35,481 nt of DNA from a virus: positions 1-35,481 of IMG/VR virus record IMGVR_UViG_3300005069_000003; one strand, given 5' to 3'. Position 1 is the stretch's first letter; every line of letters begins with the position of its first letter. Position numbers and translations under genes: made by a program. Below are positions 4,228 through 35,481 of this stretch, in pieces. The notes beneath the pieces were generated by a model that was not told the DNA's origin, ran no database searches, and saw nothing but the letters and a program-made list of their open reading frames with translations.

Positions 4228-4243
4228 GTTAAGGAGTTACAAA

Positions 4244-4300
4244 ATGAAAAAATACTTTTACATTAATACAGACAAATCAACAGATATAAAAGATGCACAA
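4244..4300 (+). repeat. 57-nt segment identical to the reverse complement of 34930-34986 (first 19 codons)
   Basis: atgaaaaaatacttttacattaatacagacaaatcaacagatataaaagatgcacaa is present on both strands, 57/57. Confidence 0.95.
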
Positions 4301-5173
4301 GATGATGATTTTCAAGAGGTGGAACCTAGTGAAAAACTAGATGATACCCCCGCTGAAGCACAAGATGACGTGGATAGCCAAGATACTGAATCAGATACCG
4401 ATGGTACAGAAACAGAAGACTTGGTTAGTATCGGTGACGAAGTTGTCAATGCGGATGACGATGAAGACCATGAGCAGGGTACGAAAGCGCCGCCATGGGT
4501 AACAGAGTTACGCAAAGAGGTTAGAACTTTAAAACGCGAGAAGAAAGAGCGTGAGCGGTTAGACCGCGAGCGTCAGATACCGGCTACTCAACCCAAAGAG
4601 ACTTTAGCCTTAGGTAATAAACCTAAGATTGACGACTTTGATTATGATAGTGACGCCTATGAGGCTGCACTAGATGGTTGGTACACACGTAAACAAACTG
4701 TAGAAGCGCAAGCACGACAAATCGAAGCTGCTAGAGAAGCACAAACTAGAGAATGGCAACAAAAGCTATCTTCTTACGAAGATAAGAAAACCAAGCTTAA
4801 AGTACGAGACTTCGAAGATGCTGAAGCTGTTATCTTAGAAAATTTATCAGAAGCACAACAAGGAATCATACTCAATGGTGCGGATAACCCTGCATTATTA
4901 GTATATGCACTTGGTAAAAACGAAGCAAAAGCTAAAGAGTTGGCTAAAACCACAGATTTAGTGAAATTTGCATTCAACGTAGCGAAATTGGAGAGTCAAT
5001 TGAAGGTAACCCAAAAAAGGATTCCAGAGCCTGAAAAAGTAGTCGGTGGTAGCAGTGCTTCCCCAACGAAAAATCAGAACTCAACACTAGAAAAACTTGA
5101 AGCAGAGGCTTTACGTACAGGCGATCGAACAAAAGTGATTGCCTTTAAAAGGCAAATGTTCAAGAAAGAGTAA
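4244..5173 (+). CDS. Scaffolding-like protein (acidic N-terminal half, charged coiled-coil C-terminal half)
   Basis: Lies between portal and capsid genes. AAGGAG at 4232-4237 sits 6 nt before ATG 4244, so 4244 is preferred over the track start 4193, which lies inside the portal gene. D/E-rich low-complexity region followed by K/E/A/Q helices. Confidence 0.6.
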   Translation: MKKYFYINTDKSTDIKDAQDDDFQEVEPSEKLDDTPAEAQDDVDSQDTESDTDGTETEDLVSIGDEVVNADDDEDHEQGTKAPPWVTELRKEVRTLKREKKERERLDRERQIPATQPKETLALGNKPKIDDFDYDSDAYEAALDGWYTRKQTVEAQARQIEAAREAQTREWQQKLSSYEDKKTKLKVRDFEDAEAVILENLSEAQQGIILNGADNPALLVYALGKNEAKAKELAKTTDLVKFAFNVAKLESQLKVTQKRIPEPEKVVGGSSASPTKNQNSTLEKLEAEALRTGDRTKVIAFKRQMFKKE

Positions 5174-6539: not shown

Positions 6540-6842
6540 ATGAGAGAAGATAGAATGTTATACAAGCACCCCGGCACTGAGCAGATGCATAATGGGTTTT
6601 TTGAAATATTAATCGTAGATGAAGCCGCACCCGGCGAATTACAAGCAGCCTTAAAAGATGGTTGGAGTTTAACTACCACAGAGGCGTTAGCACGCAGTGA
6701 GGCAGAGGTACAGGCAGCCATTGAGGCAGAGATACGTAAACCTAAGAAAGTTGTAAAAGTAGAGGGTACTGTTGCGGCTGGGTACACCGCCGCTTTAGGT
6801 TACGTTGCTGTAGGCTACGAATCCCCGATTGTAGGCACTTAA
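6540..6842 (+). CDS. Hypothetical head-module protein (100 aa)
   Basis: AAGGAG at 6529-6534 sits 5 nt before ATG 6540, so 6540 is preferred over the track start 6477. Confidence 0.6.
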   Translation: MREDRMLYKHPGTEQMHNGFFEILIVDEAAPGELQAALKDGWSLTTTEALARSEAEVQAAIEAEIRKPKKVVKVEGTVAAGYTAALGYVAVGYESPIVGT

Positions 6843-6843
6843 C

Positions 6844-7320
6844 ATGGGGTGGACTAAGAAACAACTAATCACGCAGGCATTCGAAGAGATAGGGCTATCT
6901 GCTAGCATTTATGATATTACACCAGCTCAATTAGAAACGGCGGCGAATAAACTCAATGCAATGATGGCTTCCTGGTCACTAAGCGGTGTGCGTGTCGGTT
7001 GGGCTAGTCCATCTAGTCAAGCGTTGAATGATATTAATCAAGATTCGCTGGCACCAGACTACGCCAATGAGGCGATATACACAAACCTAGCGGTTAGGTT
7101 GTCGTCTTCTTTCGGTAAAGTCGTGTCTCCAGAGCTTAGAGCATTGTCCATGGCTAGCTATAGTGACTTAGTCAATGCTTTAACTGGTGACCCTCCGGAA
7201 TCACAACTACCTAGCACGTTGCCTATAGGTGCCGGGTACAAGCGGCGGTACTATAAATACTTCCCACAACAACAGGCACCATTATTAGCAGATGATGGGC
7301 AAGAACTAACATTTGAATAA
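6844..7320 (+). CDS. Head-to-tail adaptor, P22 gp4-like
   Basis: 158 aa. QLITQAFEEIGLSA...LETAANKLNAMMASW, AIYTNLAVRL and YKYFPQQ follow the order of the P22 gp4 motifs (recalled from memory, not searched). Confidence 0.6.
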   Translation: MGWTKKQLITQAFEEIGLSASIYDITPAQLETAANKLNAMMASWSLSGVRVGWASPSSQALNDINQDSLAPDYANEAIYTNLAVRLSSSFGKVVSPELRALSMASYSDLVNALTGDPPESQLPSTLPIGAGYKRRYYKYFPQQQAPLLADDGQELTFE

Positions 7321-7328
7321 AGGTCATT

Positions 7329-7784
7329 ATGCCAACAATCAATCAATTATCTAGTGTCGATACTATATCGTCTACTGATCAGGTGCCTATTTACAGTGGT
7401 ACCAATGGGGACGCCCGCAAGGCATCTTTTAACACAGTTACCAGTTACTTATCTGGTAAAATAACATCTGTGGATCGTATGGTTACTCAATACTCCGCCC
7501 CCTCCGCAACGGGTTTTACGGCTAATGTGTATGATGGTGCTACAAGTATCTGGCTTATTTTAACGCCAACTGGTACAATGGCTACAGGCACAATTAAGTT
7601 GCCAACAAATACCAATTGTGTAGACCGCCAAGAGGTTTTAGTAAACTGCACCCAAATCGTGACAACTCTTACATTAAATGGTAACGGCGCTACGGTAACA
7701 GGTGCACCATCTACCTTAGCTGCAAATGGATTTTTTAGACTACGTTATGACGCAGTTACGTCTACATGGTATAGAATAGGTTAA
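7329..7784 (+). CDS. Hypothetical virion protein (151 aa)
   Basis: N-terminus MPTINQLSSVDTISSTDQVPIY..GDARKAS is of a type common at the N-termini of phage tail or fibre proteins. Lies in the structural operon. Confidence 0.5.
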   Translation: MPTINQLSSVDTISSTDQVPIYSGTNGDARKASFNTVTSYLSGKITSVDRMVTQYSAPSATGFTANVYDGATSIWLILTPTGTMATGTIKLPTNTNCVDRQEVLVNCTQIVTTLTLNGNGATVTGAPSTLAANGFFRLRYDAVTSTWYRIG

Positions 7785-7812
7785 TTGACCTACAACATAA
7801 AAGGATAAAAAT

Positions 7813-8112
7813 ATGGCTACACAACAGCCTTTCTGCCCTCACTACGGTAGTGGGATAACAGTATCCGTGGGGTCATCTACGGGGGCATCTACAATACCAA
7901 CTGGTACATCCACTGTTTGTATAACCTCTAAGAACTCGGTTCTATGTTACGTACGTATTGGTGCTCCAGGTGTGACAGCTACAACAGCAGACTACCCTGT
8001 ACCGCCGAACCAACAGGTCACAATTACACGTGATCCAGAACATAATACTATTGCTTACATCGCTCCTGCTACTGGCGGCGACCTTCAAATTATGGTTGGT
8101 AGTGGGTTTTAA
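7813..8112 (+). CDS. Hypothetical virion protein (99 aa)
   Basis: AAGGA SD. Beta-rich composition. Lies in the structural operon. Confidence 0.5.
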   Translation: MATQQPFCPHYGSGITVSVGSSTGASTIPTGTSTVCITSKNSVLCYVRIGAPGVTATTADYPVPPNQQVTITRDPEHNTIAYIAPATGGDLQIMVGSGF

Positions 8113-8116
8113 ATAG

Positions 8117-9610
8117 ATGTTGAGTAAAAGAACTAGACAGCGGTCGCGCCCTAAGACCTATACAAGTACACAGGCGGCACCTTCGCCACCATCACTATCA
8201 TTACCTATGGTAACCAACATCACAGATACAACAGCTACGGCTGGGGTAACTACTGATAGTTCAAGCGGAACCCTTTATATAGCTGTAACTACAAGCGCTA
8301 CAGCTCCAACAGCTTCAGCTATTAAAGCTGGAACTGGTTTTACTTTTGCAGCTAACCAATCTATAACTACAACTGGTGCCAAAACCTTTAGCGTTACAGG
8401 TTTAACTGCTAGTACAACCTATTATCACTACTACGTACACAACAACGTCGTAGGTGATAGCGCTGTGTTGTCTGGGGCGTCGTTCAATACTATATCGTTA
8501 GCGCCTCCAGTATTATCTTCAGCTACAACTACTTCAGTTACGACTACTACAGCTACAGCTGGGGTAACTACAGATAGCTCAAGTGGTACGCTTTACATAG
8601 CTGTAACTACAAGCGCTACAGCTCCAACAGCTTCAGCTATTAAAGCTGGAACCGGCTTTACTTTTGCAGCTAACCAGTCTATAACTACGACAGGAGCTAA
8701 AACCTTTAGTGTGACAGGCTTAACTGCTAGCACAACTTACTATCACCATACGATTCATAACAATACTAATGGTGACAGCAACATACTTACAAGCTCATCA
8801 TTTACAACATCCGCCGGCGCATCTTACATTTTGGATACGCTAGCCGTCGCACCTACAAATGTTTACTCAATGCGTAAACTTCTAAGCGCTTACAGTGGTA
8901 ATGCAATCCGCGTTCGTCGCAGCTCTGATAATACTGAACAAGATATTGGGTTTTCTTCGAATATATTAGACACAACAACATTATTATCTTTTGTTGGTGC
9001 TGGTACTGGGTATGTTGTAACTTGGTATGACCAATCAGGTAATAACAGAGATTTAACACAAACCACTCAATCACAACAAGCAATCATTGTTAGTTCAGGT
9101 ATTTTAGTAGTCAATAACGGTGTACCATACATGACCTATCCATCGGGTGGAATTATGTTTACATCTACTAACTTTAGTTGGGGTGGTACTGTATGTATGT
9201 CGGCAGTAGCTTGGACTAGTGCTTCTAGCTATCGTAGGTTGGTGAATGTGGGGACAGATAACCTATGCTTCTTTGGGTCAGTTAGTGGTAATGCTGCTGT
9301 ATTCGTTGGTACAGGTACAGGCTGGAATGATGTTAACGCCAATGTTACATCCGTTGCGGTCACAAGCCCTTCAGTAATGTCTTTTGTTAACAACGGTGCA
9401 ACATTAAGACCGTTCACAAATGGTACAACTCACACTACTAAAAATGGTGCAACCATTACAGTTGGCTCCCAAGTTCTTGGGCTGGGTACGTTCTCTACCC
9501 AAGATTGGTCGGGTAGGGTTGCTGAGTTAATAGCTTGGCAGGGGTTATCTACAACAGACCGCCGCACGCTTGAAGTTGACCAAGGTACATATTATGGGGT
9601 TACAGTTTAA
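8117..9610 (+). CDS. Fibre or receptor-binding-like protein with two tandem Ig/FN3-like repeats and a C-terminal lectin-like (LamG/ConA-like?) domain
   Basis: 497 aa. A 106-aa period repeat with a 67-aa identical core. The C-terminal part (SMRKLLSAYSGNAIRVRRSSDN..DIGF...WYDQSGNNRDL) resembles carbohydrate-binding jelly-roll modules seen in phage fibres. Confidence 0.45.
   Translation: MLSKRTRQRSRPKTYTSTQAAPSPPSLSLPMVTNITDTTATAGVTTDSSSGTLYIAVTTSATAPTASAIKAGTGFTFAANQSITTTGAKTFSVTGLTASTTYYHYYVHNNVVGDSAVLSGASFNTISLAPPVLSSATTTSVTTTTATAGVTTDSSSGTLYIAVTTSATAPTASAIKAGTGFTFAANQSITTTGAKTFSVTGLTASTTYYHHTIHNNTNGDSNILTSSSFTTSAGASYILDTLAVAPTNVYSMRKLLSAYSGNAIRVRRSSDNTEQDIGFSSNILDTTTLLSFVGAGTGYVVTWYDQSGNNRDLTQTTQSQQAIIVSSGILVVNNGVPYMTYPSGGIMFTSTNFSWGGTVCMSAVAWTSASSYRRLVNVGTDNLCFFGSVSGNAAVFVGTGTGWNDVNANVTSVAVTSPSVMSFVNNGATLRPFTNGTTHTTKNGATITVGSQVLGLGTFSTQDWSGRVAELIAWQGLSTTDRRTLEVDQGTYYGVTV
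8228..8428 (+). repeat. Repeat unit 1 (67 codons) of the intragenic tandem duplication
   Basis: Encodes TTATAGVTTDSSSG...LTASTTYYH, the same peptide as 8546-8746. Confidence 0.9.
8546..8746 (+). repeat. Repeat unit 2 (67 codons) of the intragenic tandem duplication
   Basis: Same 67 aa as unit 1. By my count 21 nucleotide differences, all at third codon positions and all synonymous. Confidence 0.9.
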
Positions 9611-11823: not shown

Positions 11824-11831
11824 GATTACCT

Positions 11832-11988
11832 AAAACCTAGTTTTGTAAATACGGAATTTGTAAAATCTATTTTCAAAAACATAGGGTTAACCCTTAGTTT
11901 GTCTCATTTTAGAGACATTTTTGCTACAGATAAGCCCCTAAAATGTAGCAAGTTATAACAAAGCACCTTTTTCATAACTTTTAGTTAT
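11832..11988 (+). repeat. Duplicated non-coding element, copy B (contiguous, 157 bp)
   Basis: Matches 35369-35481/54 and 232-274 with 3 mismatches in total. AGGGTTAACCCT lies at 11883-11894. Confidence 0.9.
11900..11922 (+). terminator. Weak intrinsic-terminator-like hairpin inside the duplicated element (also at 9-31 = 35437-35459)
   Basis: TGTCTC-ATTTTA-GAGACA followed by TTTTT. The stem is only 6 bp with 3 GC pairs. It lies 77 nt after the stop of the last gene of block 1. Confidence 0.35.
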
Positions 11989-12027
11989 GTTACGACTATT
12001 TAACCACCTATTATTTTTATAGAATTA

Positions 12028-12144: not shown

Positions 12145-12597
12145 ATGGTAACTACCAATGTTCTTCGCGCAAAATCTAGCCACTTAGATTTTATCAACTA
12201 TATCTTAGAAGAAAGTAGTATATCCCGTCATATTAATGACGATATCAGTATAAAATCATTGGGCATCGTACGTGATCACACTCATTTTATCATTGTAGAA
12301 GAAGACAATACCCCCACTGGGTTATTCCTAGCTGTTCCTATTAACTCTGTGACAGTAGACATCCATACCTGCATCCGCGATTGTAAAGAGAAAATGACTG
12401 CTGGGGTATTAGGGATAGAACTACTACGTGGTGAAGGTATTATATGCGCCACATCCCATATCCCTGAATACAATACAGCAGCGCTTAAGTATTCTTTGCG
12501 TTGTGGGTTCCAAAAGTGCGGGTTTATCCCCAAATCGTACTTATTTAATGGTGTTGCCATCGGTCAGCACCTTGTCTATAAAAATTTAGGAGTTTAA
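12145..12597 (+). CDS. GNAT-family N-acetyltransferase (putative)
   Basis: 150 aa. C-terminal NTAALKYSLRCGFQKCGFIP matches the GNAT motif-B pattern N..A...Y.k.GF...G. Weak SD. Confidence 0.5.
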   Translation: MVTTNVLRAKSSHLDFINYILEESSISRHINDDISIKSLGIVRDHTHFIIVEEDNTPTGLFLAVPINSVTVDIHTCIRDCKEKMTAGVLGIELLRGEGIICATSHIPEYNTAALKYSLRCGFQKCGFIPKSYLFNGVAIGQHLVYKNLGV

Positions 12598-12599
12598 TT

Positions 12600-13250
12600 A
12601 TGCCAGTAGCAGCCGCATTGCCAGCATTAGCCGTAGGGGCTTCAGTCGTTGGTGGTATCACGTCCGCCAACTCTGCCCGAAAAGCAGGGAACAAAGCAGC
12701 AGATGCACAGATGGAATCTGCACAATTGGGTATTGAAGAGCAGCGCCGTCAGTTCGACGCTATCCAAGAGCTATTAAAACCATACAGTCAAGCTGGCACC
12801 CAATCTCTTGGTATGCAGCAAGGGCTGCTAGGGTTGAATGGTAATACTGCCCAAAACGATTTAATCACCCAAATAATGAATAGTGGGCAATTTAACCAAT
12901 TAGCGCAGCAGCAAGAAAATGCATTGCTACAAAATGCATCCGCTACTGGGGGCTTGCGTGGCGGGAATATCCAAGCGGCTCTAGCGCAATTTAGACCAAA
13001 CTTACTAAACCAAATGATCCAGCAACAGTACAGCAACCTTGGGGGCTTGACTTCCTTAGGGCAAAATGCCGCAGCAATGACTGGCAACGCCGGGCAGAAC
13101 ATGGCAAATAATGTAAGTAACTTGTTTAATCAACAAGGCGCAGCACAAGCAGGCGCGTATTTAAACGCAGCTAATCAGCAAGGTAATATGTTTAATTCTG
13201 TTGTTGGCGGCATCGGCGGGGCGGCTAGATTGTTCGGGGGTACGGTATGA
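12600..13250 (+). CDS. Putative internal or ejection protein (Q/N/G/A-rich, hydrophobic N-terminus)
   Basis: 216 aa. AGGAG SD. Low-complexity composition. Position before the large ejection proteins. Confidence 0.4.
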   Translation: MPVAAALPALAVGASVVGGITSANSARKAGNKAADAQMESAQLGIEEQRRQFDAIQELLKPYSQAGTQSLGMQQGLLGLNGNTAQNDLITQIMNSGQFNQLAQQQENALLQNASATGGLRGGNIQAALAQFRPNLLNQMIQQQYSNLGGLTSLGQNAAAMTGNAGQNMANNVSNLFNQQGAAQAGAYLNAANQQGNMFNSVVGGIGGAARLFGGTV

Positions 13251-27528: not shown

Positions 27529-27573
27529 TTTATTTTCCTCGTTCAGATAAACTTAATTGCTTATCTTGTTTAT

Positions 27574-27601
27574 ATTATAACTACTTATTTTCATTTGTCA
27601 A
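27574..27601 (-). promoter_or_regulatory. Consensus sigma70 promoter TTGACA-N16-TATAAT
   Basis: Plus strand reads attata(27574-27579)-N16-tgtcaa(27596-27601). Confidence 0.65.
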
Positions 27602-33866: not shown

Positions 33867-33910
33867 TTTTTACCTCGTTTTTTCTCGTTATTCTATACGA
33901 ATTTAACAGC

Positions 33911-33939
33911 TTGCGCTTATGTTGCGTTTGTGCTATAAT
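33911..33939 (+). promoter_or_regulatory. Plus-strand promoter inside the early arm: TTGCGC-N17-TGcTATAAT
   Basis: TTGCGC at 33911-33916, 17-bp spacer, TATAAT at 33934-33939 preceded by TGC. Its 11-mer GTGCTATAATT (33930-33940) is identical to that of the late promoter (348-358). Confidence 0.5.
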
Positions 33940-33942
33940 TAA

Positions 33943-34014
33943 GTGTTGGGTGTGCTAAGGCACTGCTCACCAAGTCGGTTTGTCCTCGTTTAAGAGACTG
34001 GCGAGCCCCAACAC
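33943..34014 (+). ncRNA. Candidate structured RNA (72-nt three-way junction); expressed strand uncertain
   Basis: Closing stem GTGTTGGG(33943-50)/CCCAACAC(34007-14). Hairpin GTGC-TAAG-GCAC (33952-63). An 11-bp hairpin 33965-76/33996-34006 with a 19-nt loop. Single-nt linkers. The predicted TSS of the 33911-33939 promoter falls at the first stem base. Confidence 0.35.
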
Positions 34015-34016
34015 CT

Positions 34017-34265
34017 CTAACGTTCGCACGAACAATTATTATATTCACAGCATCCATACCAATTTAGTTCTTGTTGCTCAAAAGCCACAATGTTCCTAAA
34101 ACGAGCAATCCGCCAACAAGAGTGCCTAATTCTAAAAGGGATCGGTGTTGCGACAACGCAACAATCACAAACGCCACTAAAGTTATAACTAGGGTTTTTC
34201 CTAGTAAGGATGGCTTTTTTGCCTGGCGCTTTTGCGACTTTGTATTTTTCATTTTTTGATTCCAT
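34017..34265 (-). CDS. Alternative overlapping ORF (82 aa, Cys-rich) in a different frame from the 62-aa membrane ORF
   Basis: ACGAGGT SD lies 8 nt before ATG 34265, but the composition looks like an off-frame read of a TM-coding region. Confidence 0.3.
   Translation of the reverse strand: MESKNEKYKVAKAPGKKAILTRKNPSYNFSGVCDCCVVATPIPFRIRHSCWRIARFRNIVAFEQQELNWYGCCEYNNCSCER
34064..34252 (-). CDS. Small two-TM membrane protein (62 aa)
   Basis: Basic N-terminus KSQKRQAKK, then two hydrophobic helices (LVITLVAFVIVAL, LVGGLLVLGTLWLL). No SD at normal spacing. Confidence 0.45.
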   Translation of the reverse strand: MKNTKSQKRQAKKPSLLGKTLVITLVAFVIVALSQHRSLLELGTLVGGLLVLGTLWLLSNKN

Positions 34266-34296
34266 TTTATGTTACCTCGTGTATAATATTATGTGT

Positions 34297-34340
34297 GCTG
34301 GGGGATCCCGGTGCTTAGCGGCTGGGGATCCTGGCTGCGC
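34297..34340. repeat. GC-rich island with two GCTGGGG(G)ATCC(C/T)GG units, each centred on a BamHI palindrome
   Basis: gctgggggatcccgg (34297-34311) and gctggggatcctggc (34321-34335), 24-nt period, in an otherwise AT-rich spacer. Confidence 0.7.
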
Positions 34341-34344
34341 CTTA

Positions 34345-34635
34345 TCATTTGCTATGGTAGTAATCTGAATTTATATAATGCATATCAAACACAGCTTTGT
34401 TCTTTTTTGTCAAATCTTCTTTTGCCCATTTACTTAATGTATTAAGTAAATCTTCAGCAAGTTCCAACTTTCGTGCTAAATCATACGTTTGTTCTTCGTA
34501 TAATTCAATTTCACGGGCTTGAGTACTGTTTATAGCTTCTAATTCCTCTATTTTGTCTACTAACGTAGCGGCGTCGTTGGCAGGAATAACATCGATTATA
34601 TTAATGTTGCGGATGATGTCTTTGTAATAATTCAT
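34345..34635 (-). CDS. Hypothetical early protein (96 aa, coiled coil)
   Basis: AAACGAGGA SD. Own consensus promoter. Confidence 0.6.
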   Translation of the reverse strand: MNYYKDIIRNINIIDVIPANDAATLVDKIEELEAINSTQAREIELYEEQTYDLARKLELAEDLLNTLSKWAKEDLTKKNKAVFDMHYINSDYYHSK

Positions 34636-34670
34636 TTTTGATTCCTCGTTTTCGGTTATGTTGTATGTAT

Positions 34671-34698
34671 ATTATAACTGGTTATTTTCAATTGTCAA
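34671..34698 (-). promoter_or_regulatory. Consensus sigma70 promoter TTGACA-N16-TATAAT
   Basis: Plus strand reads attata(34671-76)-N16-tgtcaa(34693-98). Confidence 0.7.
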
Positions 34699-34986
34699 GT
34701 TGTCTTTGTGGTAATCTAACCAATCTTGCAGACCACCTAAAGATTCGGATACGTAATATGGTGAATATATATCACGTTGATCTAGGTAATTAAAACATTG
34801 AATTATGGGGTAATCCCAATCTAAACCAACTATATCGAATTCTATAACATCAGCGCCATTGTTATATTTTGGCATATCCTCTTGGGGCACACCTAAAATC
34901 TTTGCCGCTATTGTTTTCAAATCATCAAGTTGTGCATCTTTTATATCTGTTGATTTGTCTGTATTAATGTAAAAGTATTTTTTCAT
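34672..34986 (-). CDS. Hypothetical early protein (104 aa) whose first 19 residues are identical to the scaffold-like protein
   Basis: AAACGAGGA SD. N-terminus MKKYFYINTDKSTDIKDAQ encoded by the 57-nt repeat. Confidence 0.6.
   Translation of the reverse strand: MKKYFYINTDKSTDIKDAQLDDLKTIAAKILGVPQEDMPKYNNGADVIEFDIVGLDWDYPIIQCFNYLDQRDIYSPYYVSESLGGLQDWLDYHKDNLTIENNQL
34930..34986 (-). repeat. 57-nt segment identical to 4244-4300 (inverted orientation)
   Basis: Reverse complement read directly, 57/57. Confidence 0.95.
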
Positions 34987-35018
34987 TTTAATCCTCGTTT
35001 TGGTTATGTCTTGTGTAT

Positions 35019-35046
35019 ATTATAACTGTTTATTTTCAATTGTCAA
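35019..35046 (-). promoter_or_regulatory. Consensus sigma70 promoter TTGACA-N16-TATAAT
   Basis: Plus strand reads attata(35019-24)-N16-tgtcaa(35041-46). The leader is about 85% identical to the 34645-34698 cassette. Confidence 0.7.
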
Positions 35047-35260
35047 TGGTTGCGTGGTAAATATTGTAATTTATGTTGCCTGTGAACAGATTAAACTGGT
35101 CATCTGTTGCAAATAAATCAAATTCTTTTAAAGTGACACGACCTCTTTCAGTTATATTTTTATCTCCAACTTTTTGTGAAGCTATAAAAAAATAACCATT
35201 TTTATTATTATGCAATTGCATTAATTGTTTAATTGTTGTGACTTTTACAGTTGTTTTCAT
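35036..35260 (-). CDS. Hypothetical early protein (74 aa), first gene of the early arm
   Basis: CGAGGA abuts the first ATG (35269), so the second ATG (35260) has normal spacing. Confidence 0.55.
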   Translation of the reverse strand: MKTTVKVTTIKQLMQLHNNKNGYFFIASQKVGDKNITERGRVTLKEFDLFATDDQFNLFTGNINYNIYHATIDN

Positions 35261-35296
35261 TTTTTTCATCCTCGAAAATGATTGATTGATGCCTAT

Positions 35297-35324
35297 ATTA
35301 TAACTGCTTAATTTTAAATGTCAA
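35297..35324 (-). promoter_or_regulatory. Consensus sigma70 promoter TTGACA-N16-TATAAT (leftmost early promoter)
   Basis: Plus strand reads attata(35297-302)-N16-tgtcaa(35319-24). Confidence 0.7.
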
Positions 35325-35368
35325 GAGTATTTTTAGCTTTTTTCGTGTTTTAAGTGTAAAAAGTGCCA

Positions 35369-35481
35369 AAAACCAAGTTTTGTAAATACCGAATTTGTAA
35401 AATCTATTTTCAAAAACATAGGGTTAACCCTTAGTTTGTCTCATTTTAGAGACATTTTTGCTACAGATAAGCCCCTAAAAT
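35369..35481 (+). repeat. Left arm of duplicated non-coding element, copy A (continues to base 54 across the junction); matches 11832-11945
   Basis: 114 nt with 2 mismatches (35375/11838 and 35390/11853). Contains TTTGTAAA x2, the 12-bp palindrome AGGGTTAACCCT (35420-35431) and the hairpin TGTCTC-ATTTTA-GAGACA followed by T5. Confidence 0.85.
35429..35481. repeat. Terminal overlap, identical to 1-53
   Basis: Direct reading, 53/53 identical. Confidence 0.9.

Follow-up and report, generated by a model that had tools for sequence, protein, structure and literature searches.

Two unrelated genes of one phage genome begin with the same 19 codons. Within the window, by which we mean the whole 35,481-nucleotide stretch of viral DNA analysed here, a head scaffolding protein gene on the plus strand and an orphan immediate-early gene, g104, on the minus strand share an identical patch of 60 nucleotides at their translation starts, the two copies forming an inverted repeat. 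The duplication is real and statistically striking. It is probably a young, lineage-specific scar that arose when a short patch was copied between unrelated genes of a single phage, and the copying probably ran from g104, or a gene like it, to the scaffolding gene.

The reverse complement of positions 34930–34989 equals positions 4241–4300 of the plus strand in a single exact run (60/60). The coding core of this run is 57 nt long (4244–4300 on the plus strand versus 34930–34986) and consists of the ATG and 18 further codons, which together encode the peptide MKKYFYINTDKSTDIKDAQ; the AAA 5′ of each ATG is also common to both arms and extends the exact run to 60 nt. Directly 3′ of the exact core the arms differ by two nucleotides (GA versus CT, at 4301–4302 in arm A), and beyond this mismatch they share a 9-nt identity, TGATGATTT (4303–4311 in arm A). 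A repeat search accordingly delimits extended arms of 71 nt that are 97% identical (69/71): arm A, at the start of the scaffolding gene (4241–4311, plus strand, with its exact core at 4241–4300), and arm B, at the start of g104 (34919–34989, minus strand, with its exact core at 34930–34989). The short identities AAAATGA and TGATGATTT border the segment. The near-identical patch otherwise sits in unrelated flanks, both in the upstream regions and in the remainders of the two proteins, between which BLASTP detects no similarity past residue ~23. An exact comparison thus bears out what a preliminary description of this DNA had reported, namely a 57/57 inverted repeat, three matching A's before each ATG, a match at 7 of the next 9 nt and no relationship between the rest of the two proteins. 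In 20 mononucleotide shuffles, the longest exact inverted repeat measured 14–20 nt. Sub-blocks of the segment occur in the window only at the two arms (chance expectation 0.00–0.01), and there are exactly two copies of the segment, with no third.

The contig, of about 35.4 kb, is that of a lytic podovirus with a P22-like head. Its ends overlap by 53 nt, and the genome is therefore probably circular or circularly permuted, and complete at ~35,428 bp. Since the contig looks circular, the two arms lie only ~4.7 kb apart on the short arc across the contig ends; the long arc separates them by 30.6 kb. The short arc holds early promoters, the early gene g77, and the genes for TerS, TerL and portal. 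PHROG and Pfam matches identify the plus strand as a P22-type head and ejection module, comprising a TerS-like gene, TerL, portal (PF16510), coat (PF11651), and adaptor, head-closure and ejection proteins. The minus strand encodes the replication genes, including a primase (DUF5906), DNA polymerase A, a helicase and a thymidylate synthase. A megablast search of the whole region against cultured phages gave zero matches; at the protein level, similarity among cultured phages is highest, at ~46%, to RSK1 and Firinga of Ralstonia and to Pseudomonas phage PfAn1.

Other repeats are present in the genome. An element of ~125 nt, here called the R element, occurs twice at 95–100% identity (35368–35481/1–54 and 11830–11945), upstream of both late operons, that is, the operon from TerS onwards and the ejection-protein operon from 12145; the contig ends fall inside it. 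Within it lie a palindrome, AGGGTTAACCCT, and a hairpin resembling a terminator, TGTCTCATTTTAGAGACA, with a T-run after it; the element is a candidate terminator combined with a late-promoter or regulator site. A second shared block follows it (227–279 and 11941–11993); in the junction copy, 172 nt of inserted sequence separate the two blocks. The gene for a 497-aa virion structural protein contains a 219-nt tandem duplication (8227–8445/8545–8763, 87% identical, at a spacing of 318 nt), which is probably a duplicated domain, and the gene for a 1014-aa ejection protein with a lysozyme domain contains an exact 29-nt direct repeat (15236–15264/15389–15417, 153 nt apart).

The gene at arm A (4244–5173, plus strand, 309 aa) lies between the P22-type portal and coat genes, and its first 19 codons are the shared segment. 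Its product matches phrog_648 (9.5e-53) over residues 22–305. The earlier suggestion that this gene is scaffold-like has thus held up, with PHROG, Pfam and AlphaFold2 (AF2) all pointing to a P22-type scaffolding protein. The ribosome-binding site AAGGAG (4231–4236, plus strand) stands 7 nt 5′ of the ATG, and both it and the position of the start match those of two relatives, L015 and L089. At the DNA level, the end of the portal gene, AAGGAG and the spacer all align with these two relatives, and the homology continues up to A(A/T)AATGA. By this alignment, the ribosome-binding site is native to the scaffolding gene. The ATGs at both arms are credible starts. An AF2 model built on the family alignment gives residues 1–79 a pLDDT below 50 and no secondary structure, followed after residue 79 by confident helices that end in a C-terminal helix-turn-helix. 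This model agrees with P22 gp8, in which the N-terminus is disordered and coat is bound by a helix-turn-helix at the C-terminus. The family alignment contains zero invariant positions between M1 and E58. The shared segment caps an acidic, disordered and unconserved N-terminal tail of ~80 residues.

The gene at arm B, g104 (34672–34986, minus strand, 104 aa), belongs to an early leader of ~1.5 kb (33867–35428, minus strand), which is built of three tandem cassettes with the orphan open reading frames g77, g104 and g96. Every cassette carries one small orphan open reading frame, together with its perfect TTGACA-16-TATAAT promoter and ACGAGGA leader. The promoters P1 (35297–35324), P2 (35019–35046) and P3 (34671–34698), all on the minus strand and all matching the sigma-70 consensus at 12/12 positions, drive g77, g104 and g96, respectively, P1 belonging to the first cassette. 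The reading frames of g77 and g104 each run into the following promoter copy and stop there; for g104 this copy is P3, which covers the 3′ end of the gene and supplies its final 9 codons. The ribosome-binding site of g104, GAGGA (34992–34996, minus strand), is placed 5 nt 5′ of the ATG and forms part of the ACGAGGA leader, which is common to g104, the P3/g96 cassette and the primase gene. The leader of g104 is a paralogue of those of the neighbouring P3 cassette and of the primase gene, the similarity extending to AAAATGA. P2 is a member of a family of 49-nt repeats, whose copies are found at 34650, 34998, 35276 and 27553. The fourth copy (27553–27601) is more diverged (69%) and lies within the replication module, which suggests an internal early or middle promoter there. 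A small open reading frame with a hydrophobic stretch (34064–34252) is found 3′ of the three cassettes.

Searches for homologues of g104 found no credible match in 5.8 billion protein clusters, in a complete HMMER search of 1.84 billion representatives, or in viral, metagenome or genome contigs. When the clusters were queried with g104 including its 19-residue start, three candidates shared words with it and zero matched. Two individual hits were set aside: P0122, a repetitive, eukaryote-like protein with nine repeat units that inflate its E-value, and a match in L169 (Christensenella) that was judged spurious, being short and 37% identical, with an E-value that is relative to candidate stretches only. 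An AF2 model of g104 alone reached a pLDDT of 43 and was unusable. No counterparts of the four leader open reading frames g77, g104, g96 and g82 were found in related loci (88 loci for g77, g96 and g82), and the DNA of the early leader shows no similarity to that of relatives. Relatives that span the divergent junction have the same divergent architecture as the window, and in the one inspected in detail, L038, the primase gene follows the junction almost directly. Because the leader open reading frames are without counterparts and the primase of L038 lies near the junction, the early leader is a lineage-specific insertion of orphan cassettes.

The scaffolding gene belongs to a large family, which comprises 4068 matches. 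The related loci considered include 72 viral loci, with primase identities of 43–70% (mostly 56–70%), and 80 metagenome loci, with portal identities of 57–74%. The nearest scaffolds, P0003 (82%), P0004/L015 (72%) and P0005/L089 (56%), all lack the 19 residues. The starts of P0003, P0004/L015 and the P0005-like L089 read MTNEYNEDDNFQEV, MTNEYNEDEDFQ and MNNDFQ, respectively; they are of the type M(TNEYNEDD)NFQ or MNNDFQ and have the same ribosome-binding site upstream. The scaffold of the window starts MKKYFYINTDKSTDIKDAQ-DDDFQEV, with the segment just 5′ of the conserved DDxFQ. About seven native codons (MTNEYNE-like) would thus have been replaced by 19, which amounts to 12 additional codons with the frame kept. 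A MAFFT alignment (60%) that carried the 5′ coding end of L015 to the middle of the 57 nt was rejected as being out of frame with the protein alignment. In L015, the closest relative with DNA, a 124-aa open reading frame (199–573) directly precedes portal; the window has TerL adjoining portal there.

Nor does the segment, or any comparable duplication, recur elsewhere. The exact 57-mer had zero matches in viral contigs. None of the 48 relatives with a locatable scaffold start carries a substantial duplicate of that start, and only two of them contain repeated 15-mers from it (one to three). Among 116 related loci of at least 8 kb, no exact inverted repeat of at least 20 nt was found except for a cluster in L070, where many inverted repeats of 18–28 nt link two regions (6800–8800 and 12300–13100); these look like a short dispersed repeat family unrelated to the segment of the scaffold and g104. 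The comparison of related genomes for co-conservation that the preliminary description had proposed therefore came out negative, the segment being missing from the nearest scaffolds and from every related locus. As the segment is confined to a single genome, neither conservation nor covariation speaks for a function.

Three lines of evidence favour g104 as the source: the relatives of the scaffold lack the segment, its composition is that of an early gene, and the leader of g104 is paralogous to its neighbours. The GC content of the segment is 22.8%, a value as low as which is found in 0% of 57-nt stretches of late genes and is reached by 1.4% of those of early genes, among which gene starts of 0.23–0.26 exist. 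Its codon and amino-acid log-odds amount to +1.65 bits, compared with means of +1.35 for early and −1.38 for late genes. We infer this direction rather than observe it, because g104 is an orphan whose native N-terminus has no independent check. The same event could in principle have run in reverse, from scaffold to g104, or both copies could have come from a third source such as a co-infecting phage. Consistent with a reversal, g104 is an orphan amid shuffled promoter cassettes, its open reading frame ends in the next promoter and it may itself be a recent chimaera; moreover, some distant scaffolds have N-terminal extensions of ~20 aa (MPxEIEVTQPDGSSETPALDEL), similar in length to the segment. 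However, a reversal requires loss of the segment in the lineages of P0003, P0004 and P0005, or else an earlier unexplained gain, and a GC content of 23% fits early gene starts and not late genes. Descent from the distant-scaffold N-terminus, EIEVTQPDGSSETPALDEL, was rejected as well: in a profile test of EIEVTQPDG, 28% of shuffles equalled the HMM score of the scaffold N-terminus, which is not significant, and the 1.5% obtained for the g104 version is not significant after two tests. For a third source, nothing was found in 5.8 billion protein clusters. We regard a reversed or third-source event as unlikely, while giving it some weight.

How might a transfer from g104 have come about? The preliminary description had listed a recent recombination joint among its readings, and this is the reading that finds support here: the copies are identical, the segment is absent from relatives, short identities border them, and the recipient tail is disordered and unconserved. 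In the mechanism that we favour, a patch of ~50–60 nt with the translation start and 19 codons would have been copied from g104 onto the scaffolding gene, by microhomology-guided template switching or by short-patch ectopic repair (similar to synthesis-dependent strand annealing, SDSA) among replicating phage genomes. The left anchor would have been the translation-initiation sequence AAAATGA, already common to both genes; since the homology with L015 and L089 runs up to A(A/T)AATGA, the left border falls in a pre-existing microhomology native to both contexts. The right anchor would have been at or beside the GAT-rich identity TGATGATTT. The product may have survived because it was in frame and kept the ribosome-binding site of the scaffold, and because only the very end of the N-terminal tail was changed, a long acidic and disordered region under no evolutionary constraint, where the change could have been neutral. 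The boundary at the start codon is, as had been pointed out, hard to put down to random repeats. It does not follow that it has a function: microhomology and in-frame survival may explain it, as a consequence of where the microhomology lies and of which products are viable, with no dedicated signal.

Some features fit this scheme less neatly. The right-hand identity is offset from the patch by the 2-nt GA/CT mismatch, and a simple crossover inside the right microhomology would not reproduce this junction. The lack of any difference over 60 nt could reflect selection or ongoing conversion instead of youth. No single-strand-annealing recombinase of the Red-beta, RecT or Erf type was found among the open reading frames scanned with PHROG and Pfam, so that host functions or template switching would need to be invoked. 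The genome nevertheless contains other near-identical short regulatory duplicates, namely the four promoter copies and the two R elements, and ectopic exchange of short sequences therefore does occur in it. Recombination of phages at short conserved flanking sequences, and across 5–13 bp, has been documented (PMC2327257).

Several known processes resemble the proposed event in part. Mosaic joints of phages arise at gene boundaries, through recombination that is illegitimate or homeologous or that relies on short homology (Martinsohn, Radman & Petit 2008, PMC2327257). The scar shares with them a patch of 100% identity in unrelated sequence, a border at a gene start with a short conserved sequence, restriction to one lineage, and survival of only a viable in-frame product. 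It differs in that the exchange is intragenomic, its parties being an early and a late gene of a single phage instead of two phages, and in that the patch is only ~60 nt long, is inverted and creates a shared N-terminus with no swap of whole genes. The modular-mosaic model of phage genomes itself is reportedly that of Hendrix and Juhala. Templated short insertions also arise by template switching or microhomology-mediated repair, in events of the MMBIR/FoSTeS type. Like these, the scar involves a short ectopic copy, microhomologies of a few bases at the flanks and the replacement of a shorter native stretch; unlike them, its donor is ~4.7 kb away or on another genome copy, and its right junction is 2 nt off.

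A quite improbable alternative to a scar of this kind is that the 57 nt serve as a shared translation-initiation region or 5′ mRNA element, whose A/U-rich, unstructured sequence gives both genes the same translational behaviour, either through efficient initiation or through repression by free scaffolding protein, as in the autoregulation of P22 gp8. Pointing this way, a 75-nt stretch at the scaffold start has a minimum free energy of −1.1 kcal/mol, compared with −5.1 in L015 and −6.7 in L089, and g77 also has an ATG-AAA-AAA start. The present gene does encode a P22-type scaffolding protein, and the N-terminal part of the P22 protein has been implicated in translational autoregulation. Unlike the P22 system, however, the segment appears to be a recent acquisition; the nearest relatives have the same ribosome-binding site and no segment, which means that a family-wide operator is not located in it. 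Folding of the shared segment with both leaders yielded no structure beyond that of shuffles (z = −0.30 for the shared RNA), and the accessibility of the start site shows no clear advantage over L015 and L089, the unpaired probability near the start being no better than in L015 (0.59 versus 0.66). With an unstructured RNA, absence from the nearest relatives and no conservation or covariation to analyse, no conserved cis element was found in the 5′ scaffold mRNA, and the shared mRNA operator once suggested for the two genes is left unsupported.

We attach similarly little credence to a broader version of this idea, in which the 19-codon module would be a functional, portable tag newly gained by the scaffold that couples g104 to it. 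Such coupling could take the form of free scaffold repressing both mRNAs, or of a shared tip that binds the same partner, with g104 co-packaged or acting as a decoy.

The version that rests on the peptide is more doubtful still. Here, the shared N-terminus would be a tag that brings g104 to a partner of the scaffold tail (the procapsid interior, the portal or the ejection proteins), or g104 would be a decoy or regulator of the scaffold. The two reading frames are kept exactly, the P22 scaffold N-terminus has been implicated in procapsid exit and in the incorporation of ejection proteins, and T4 internal proteins have only a short N-terminal capsid-targeting sequence (CTS) in common (PMC3012670). 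The likeness to the CTS lies in a short N-terminal peptide common to unrelated proteins of one phage, one of them related to the scaffold or core. The CTS, however, shows conservation throughout the T-even phages and in a number of internal proteins, and it works together with a prohead protease, whereas the peptide described here is present in two genes of a single genome and absent from every other phage or protein searched, the nearest scaffolds included. No prohead protease was found among the scanned open reading frames, nor any protease family among those of the head module. The head is of the P22 type, in which the known targeting determinant is the scaffold C-terminus that binds coat, and the tag would sit on a disordered, unconserved tail. 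In addition, g104 is under a consensus host-type early promoter and is thus presumably made at a different time than procapsids. The T4-like targeting peptide put forward in the preliminary description accordingly finds no backing here.

It is very improbable that the two copies are not on one molecule and reflect an assembly artefact or a chimaera of the population. The sequence is a JGI metagenome contig, and it ends in another repeat. Against this, a de Bruijn assembler cannot make a 60-nt duplication from microhomologies of 7–9 nt, and all four junctions need read support. These microhomologies are too short, and both arms are in coherent native contexts: arm A is in perfect synteny with relatives on both sides, and the leader at arm B is paralogous to its neighbours.

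Programmed or frequent inversion, by which the 60-bp repeat would flip the 4.7-kb arc with early promoters, TerS, TerL and portal and so bring scaffold and coat under the control of P1 and P2, is extremely unlikely, and the earlier inversion reading is left unsupported: the identical in-frame 5′ ends would leave intact open reading frames and co-directional transcription in both isomers, and 60 bp is long enough for homologous recombination, but scans of the open reading frames turned up no site-specific recombinase, be it an invertase, an integrase or another kind, the order portal-scaffold-coat is canonical in every relative with listed tblastn coordinates, and relatives lack the repeat. The invertible segments of Mu (G, with Gin) and P1 (C, with Cin) have coding inverted repeats. 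The arrangement seen here resembles these and the Hin segment in having inverted repeats within coding sequence, inversion of which would join gene parts in frame. It differs from Mu G and P1 C in that the scans revealed no invertase, that the two genes do not provide alternative versions of a single function, and that the repeat is at the 5′ start, so that inversion swaps promoters and not C-terminal specificity domains.

Taken as a young scar between g104 and the scaffolding gene, the repeat is best explained as a further example of the known mosaicism of phages, one that stands out because it is intragenomic and gives two genes a common N-terminus. It is a single, unconserved case, and it opens no long-standing question. 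Should the portable-tag reading be true after all, it would offer a snapshot of a capsid-targeting or co-regulation signal being born. For the phage itself, the repeat is a possible substrate for occasional homologous inversion, and its 60 bp could now and then invert the 4.7-kb packaging module. If the scar is what we believe it to be, it provides a clean and very young case of phage genes gaining new N-termini; it would help to explain why mosaic borders coincide with start codons, and would suggest how leader peptides common to several proteins, like the capsid-targeting sequence of T4, might come about.
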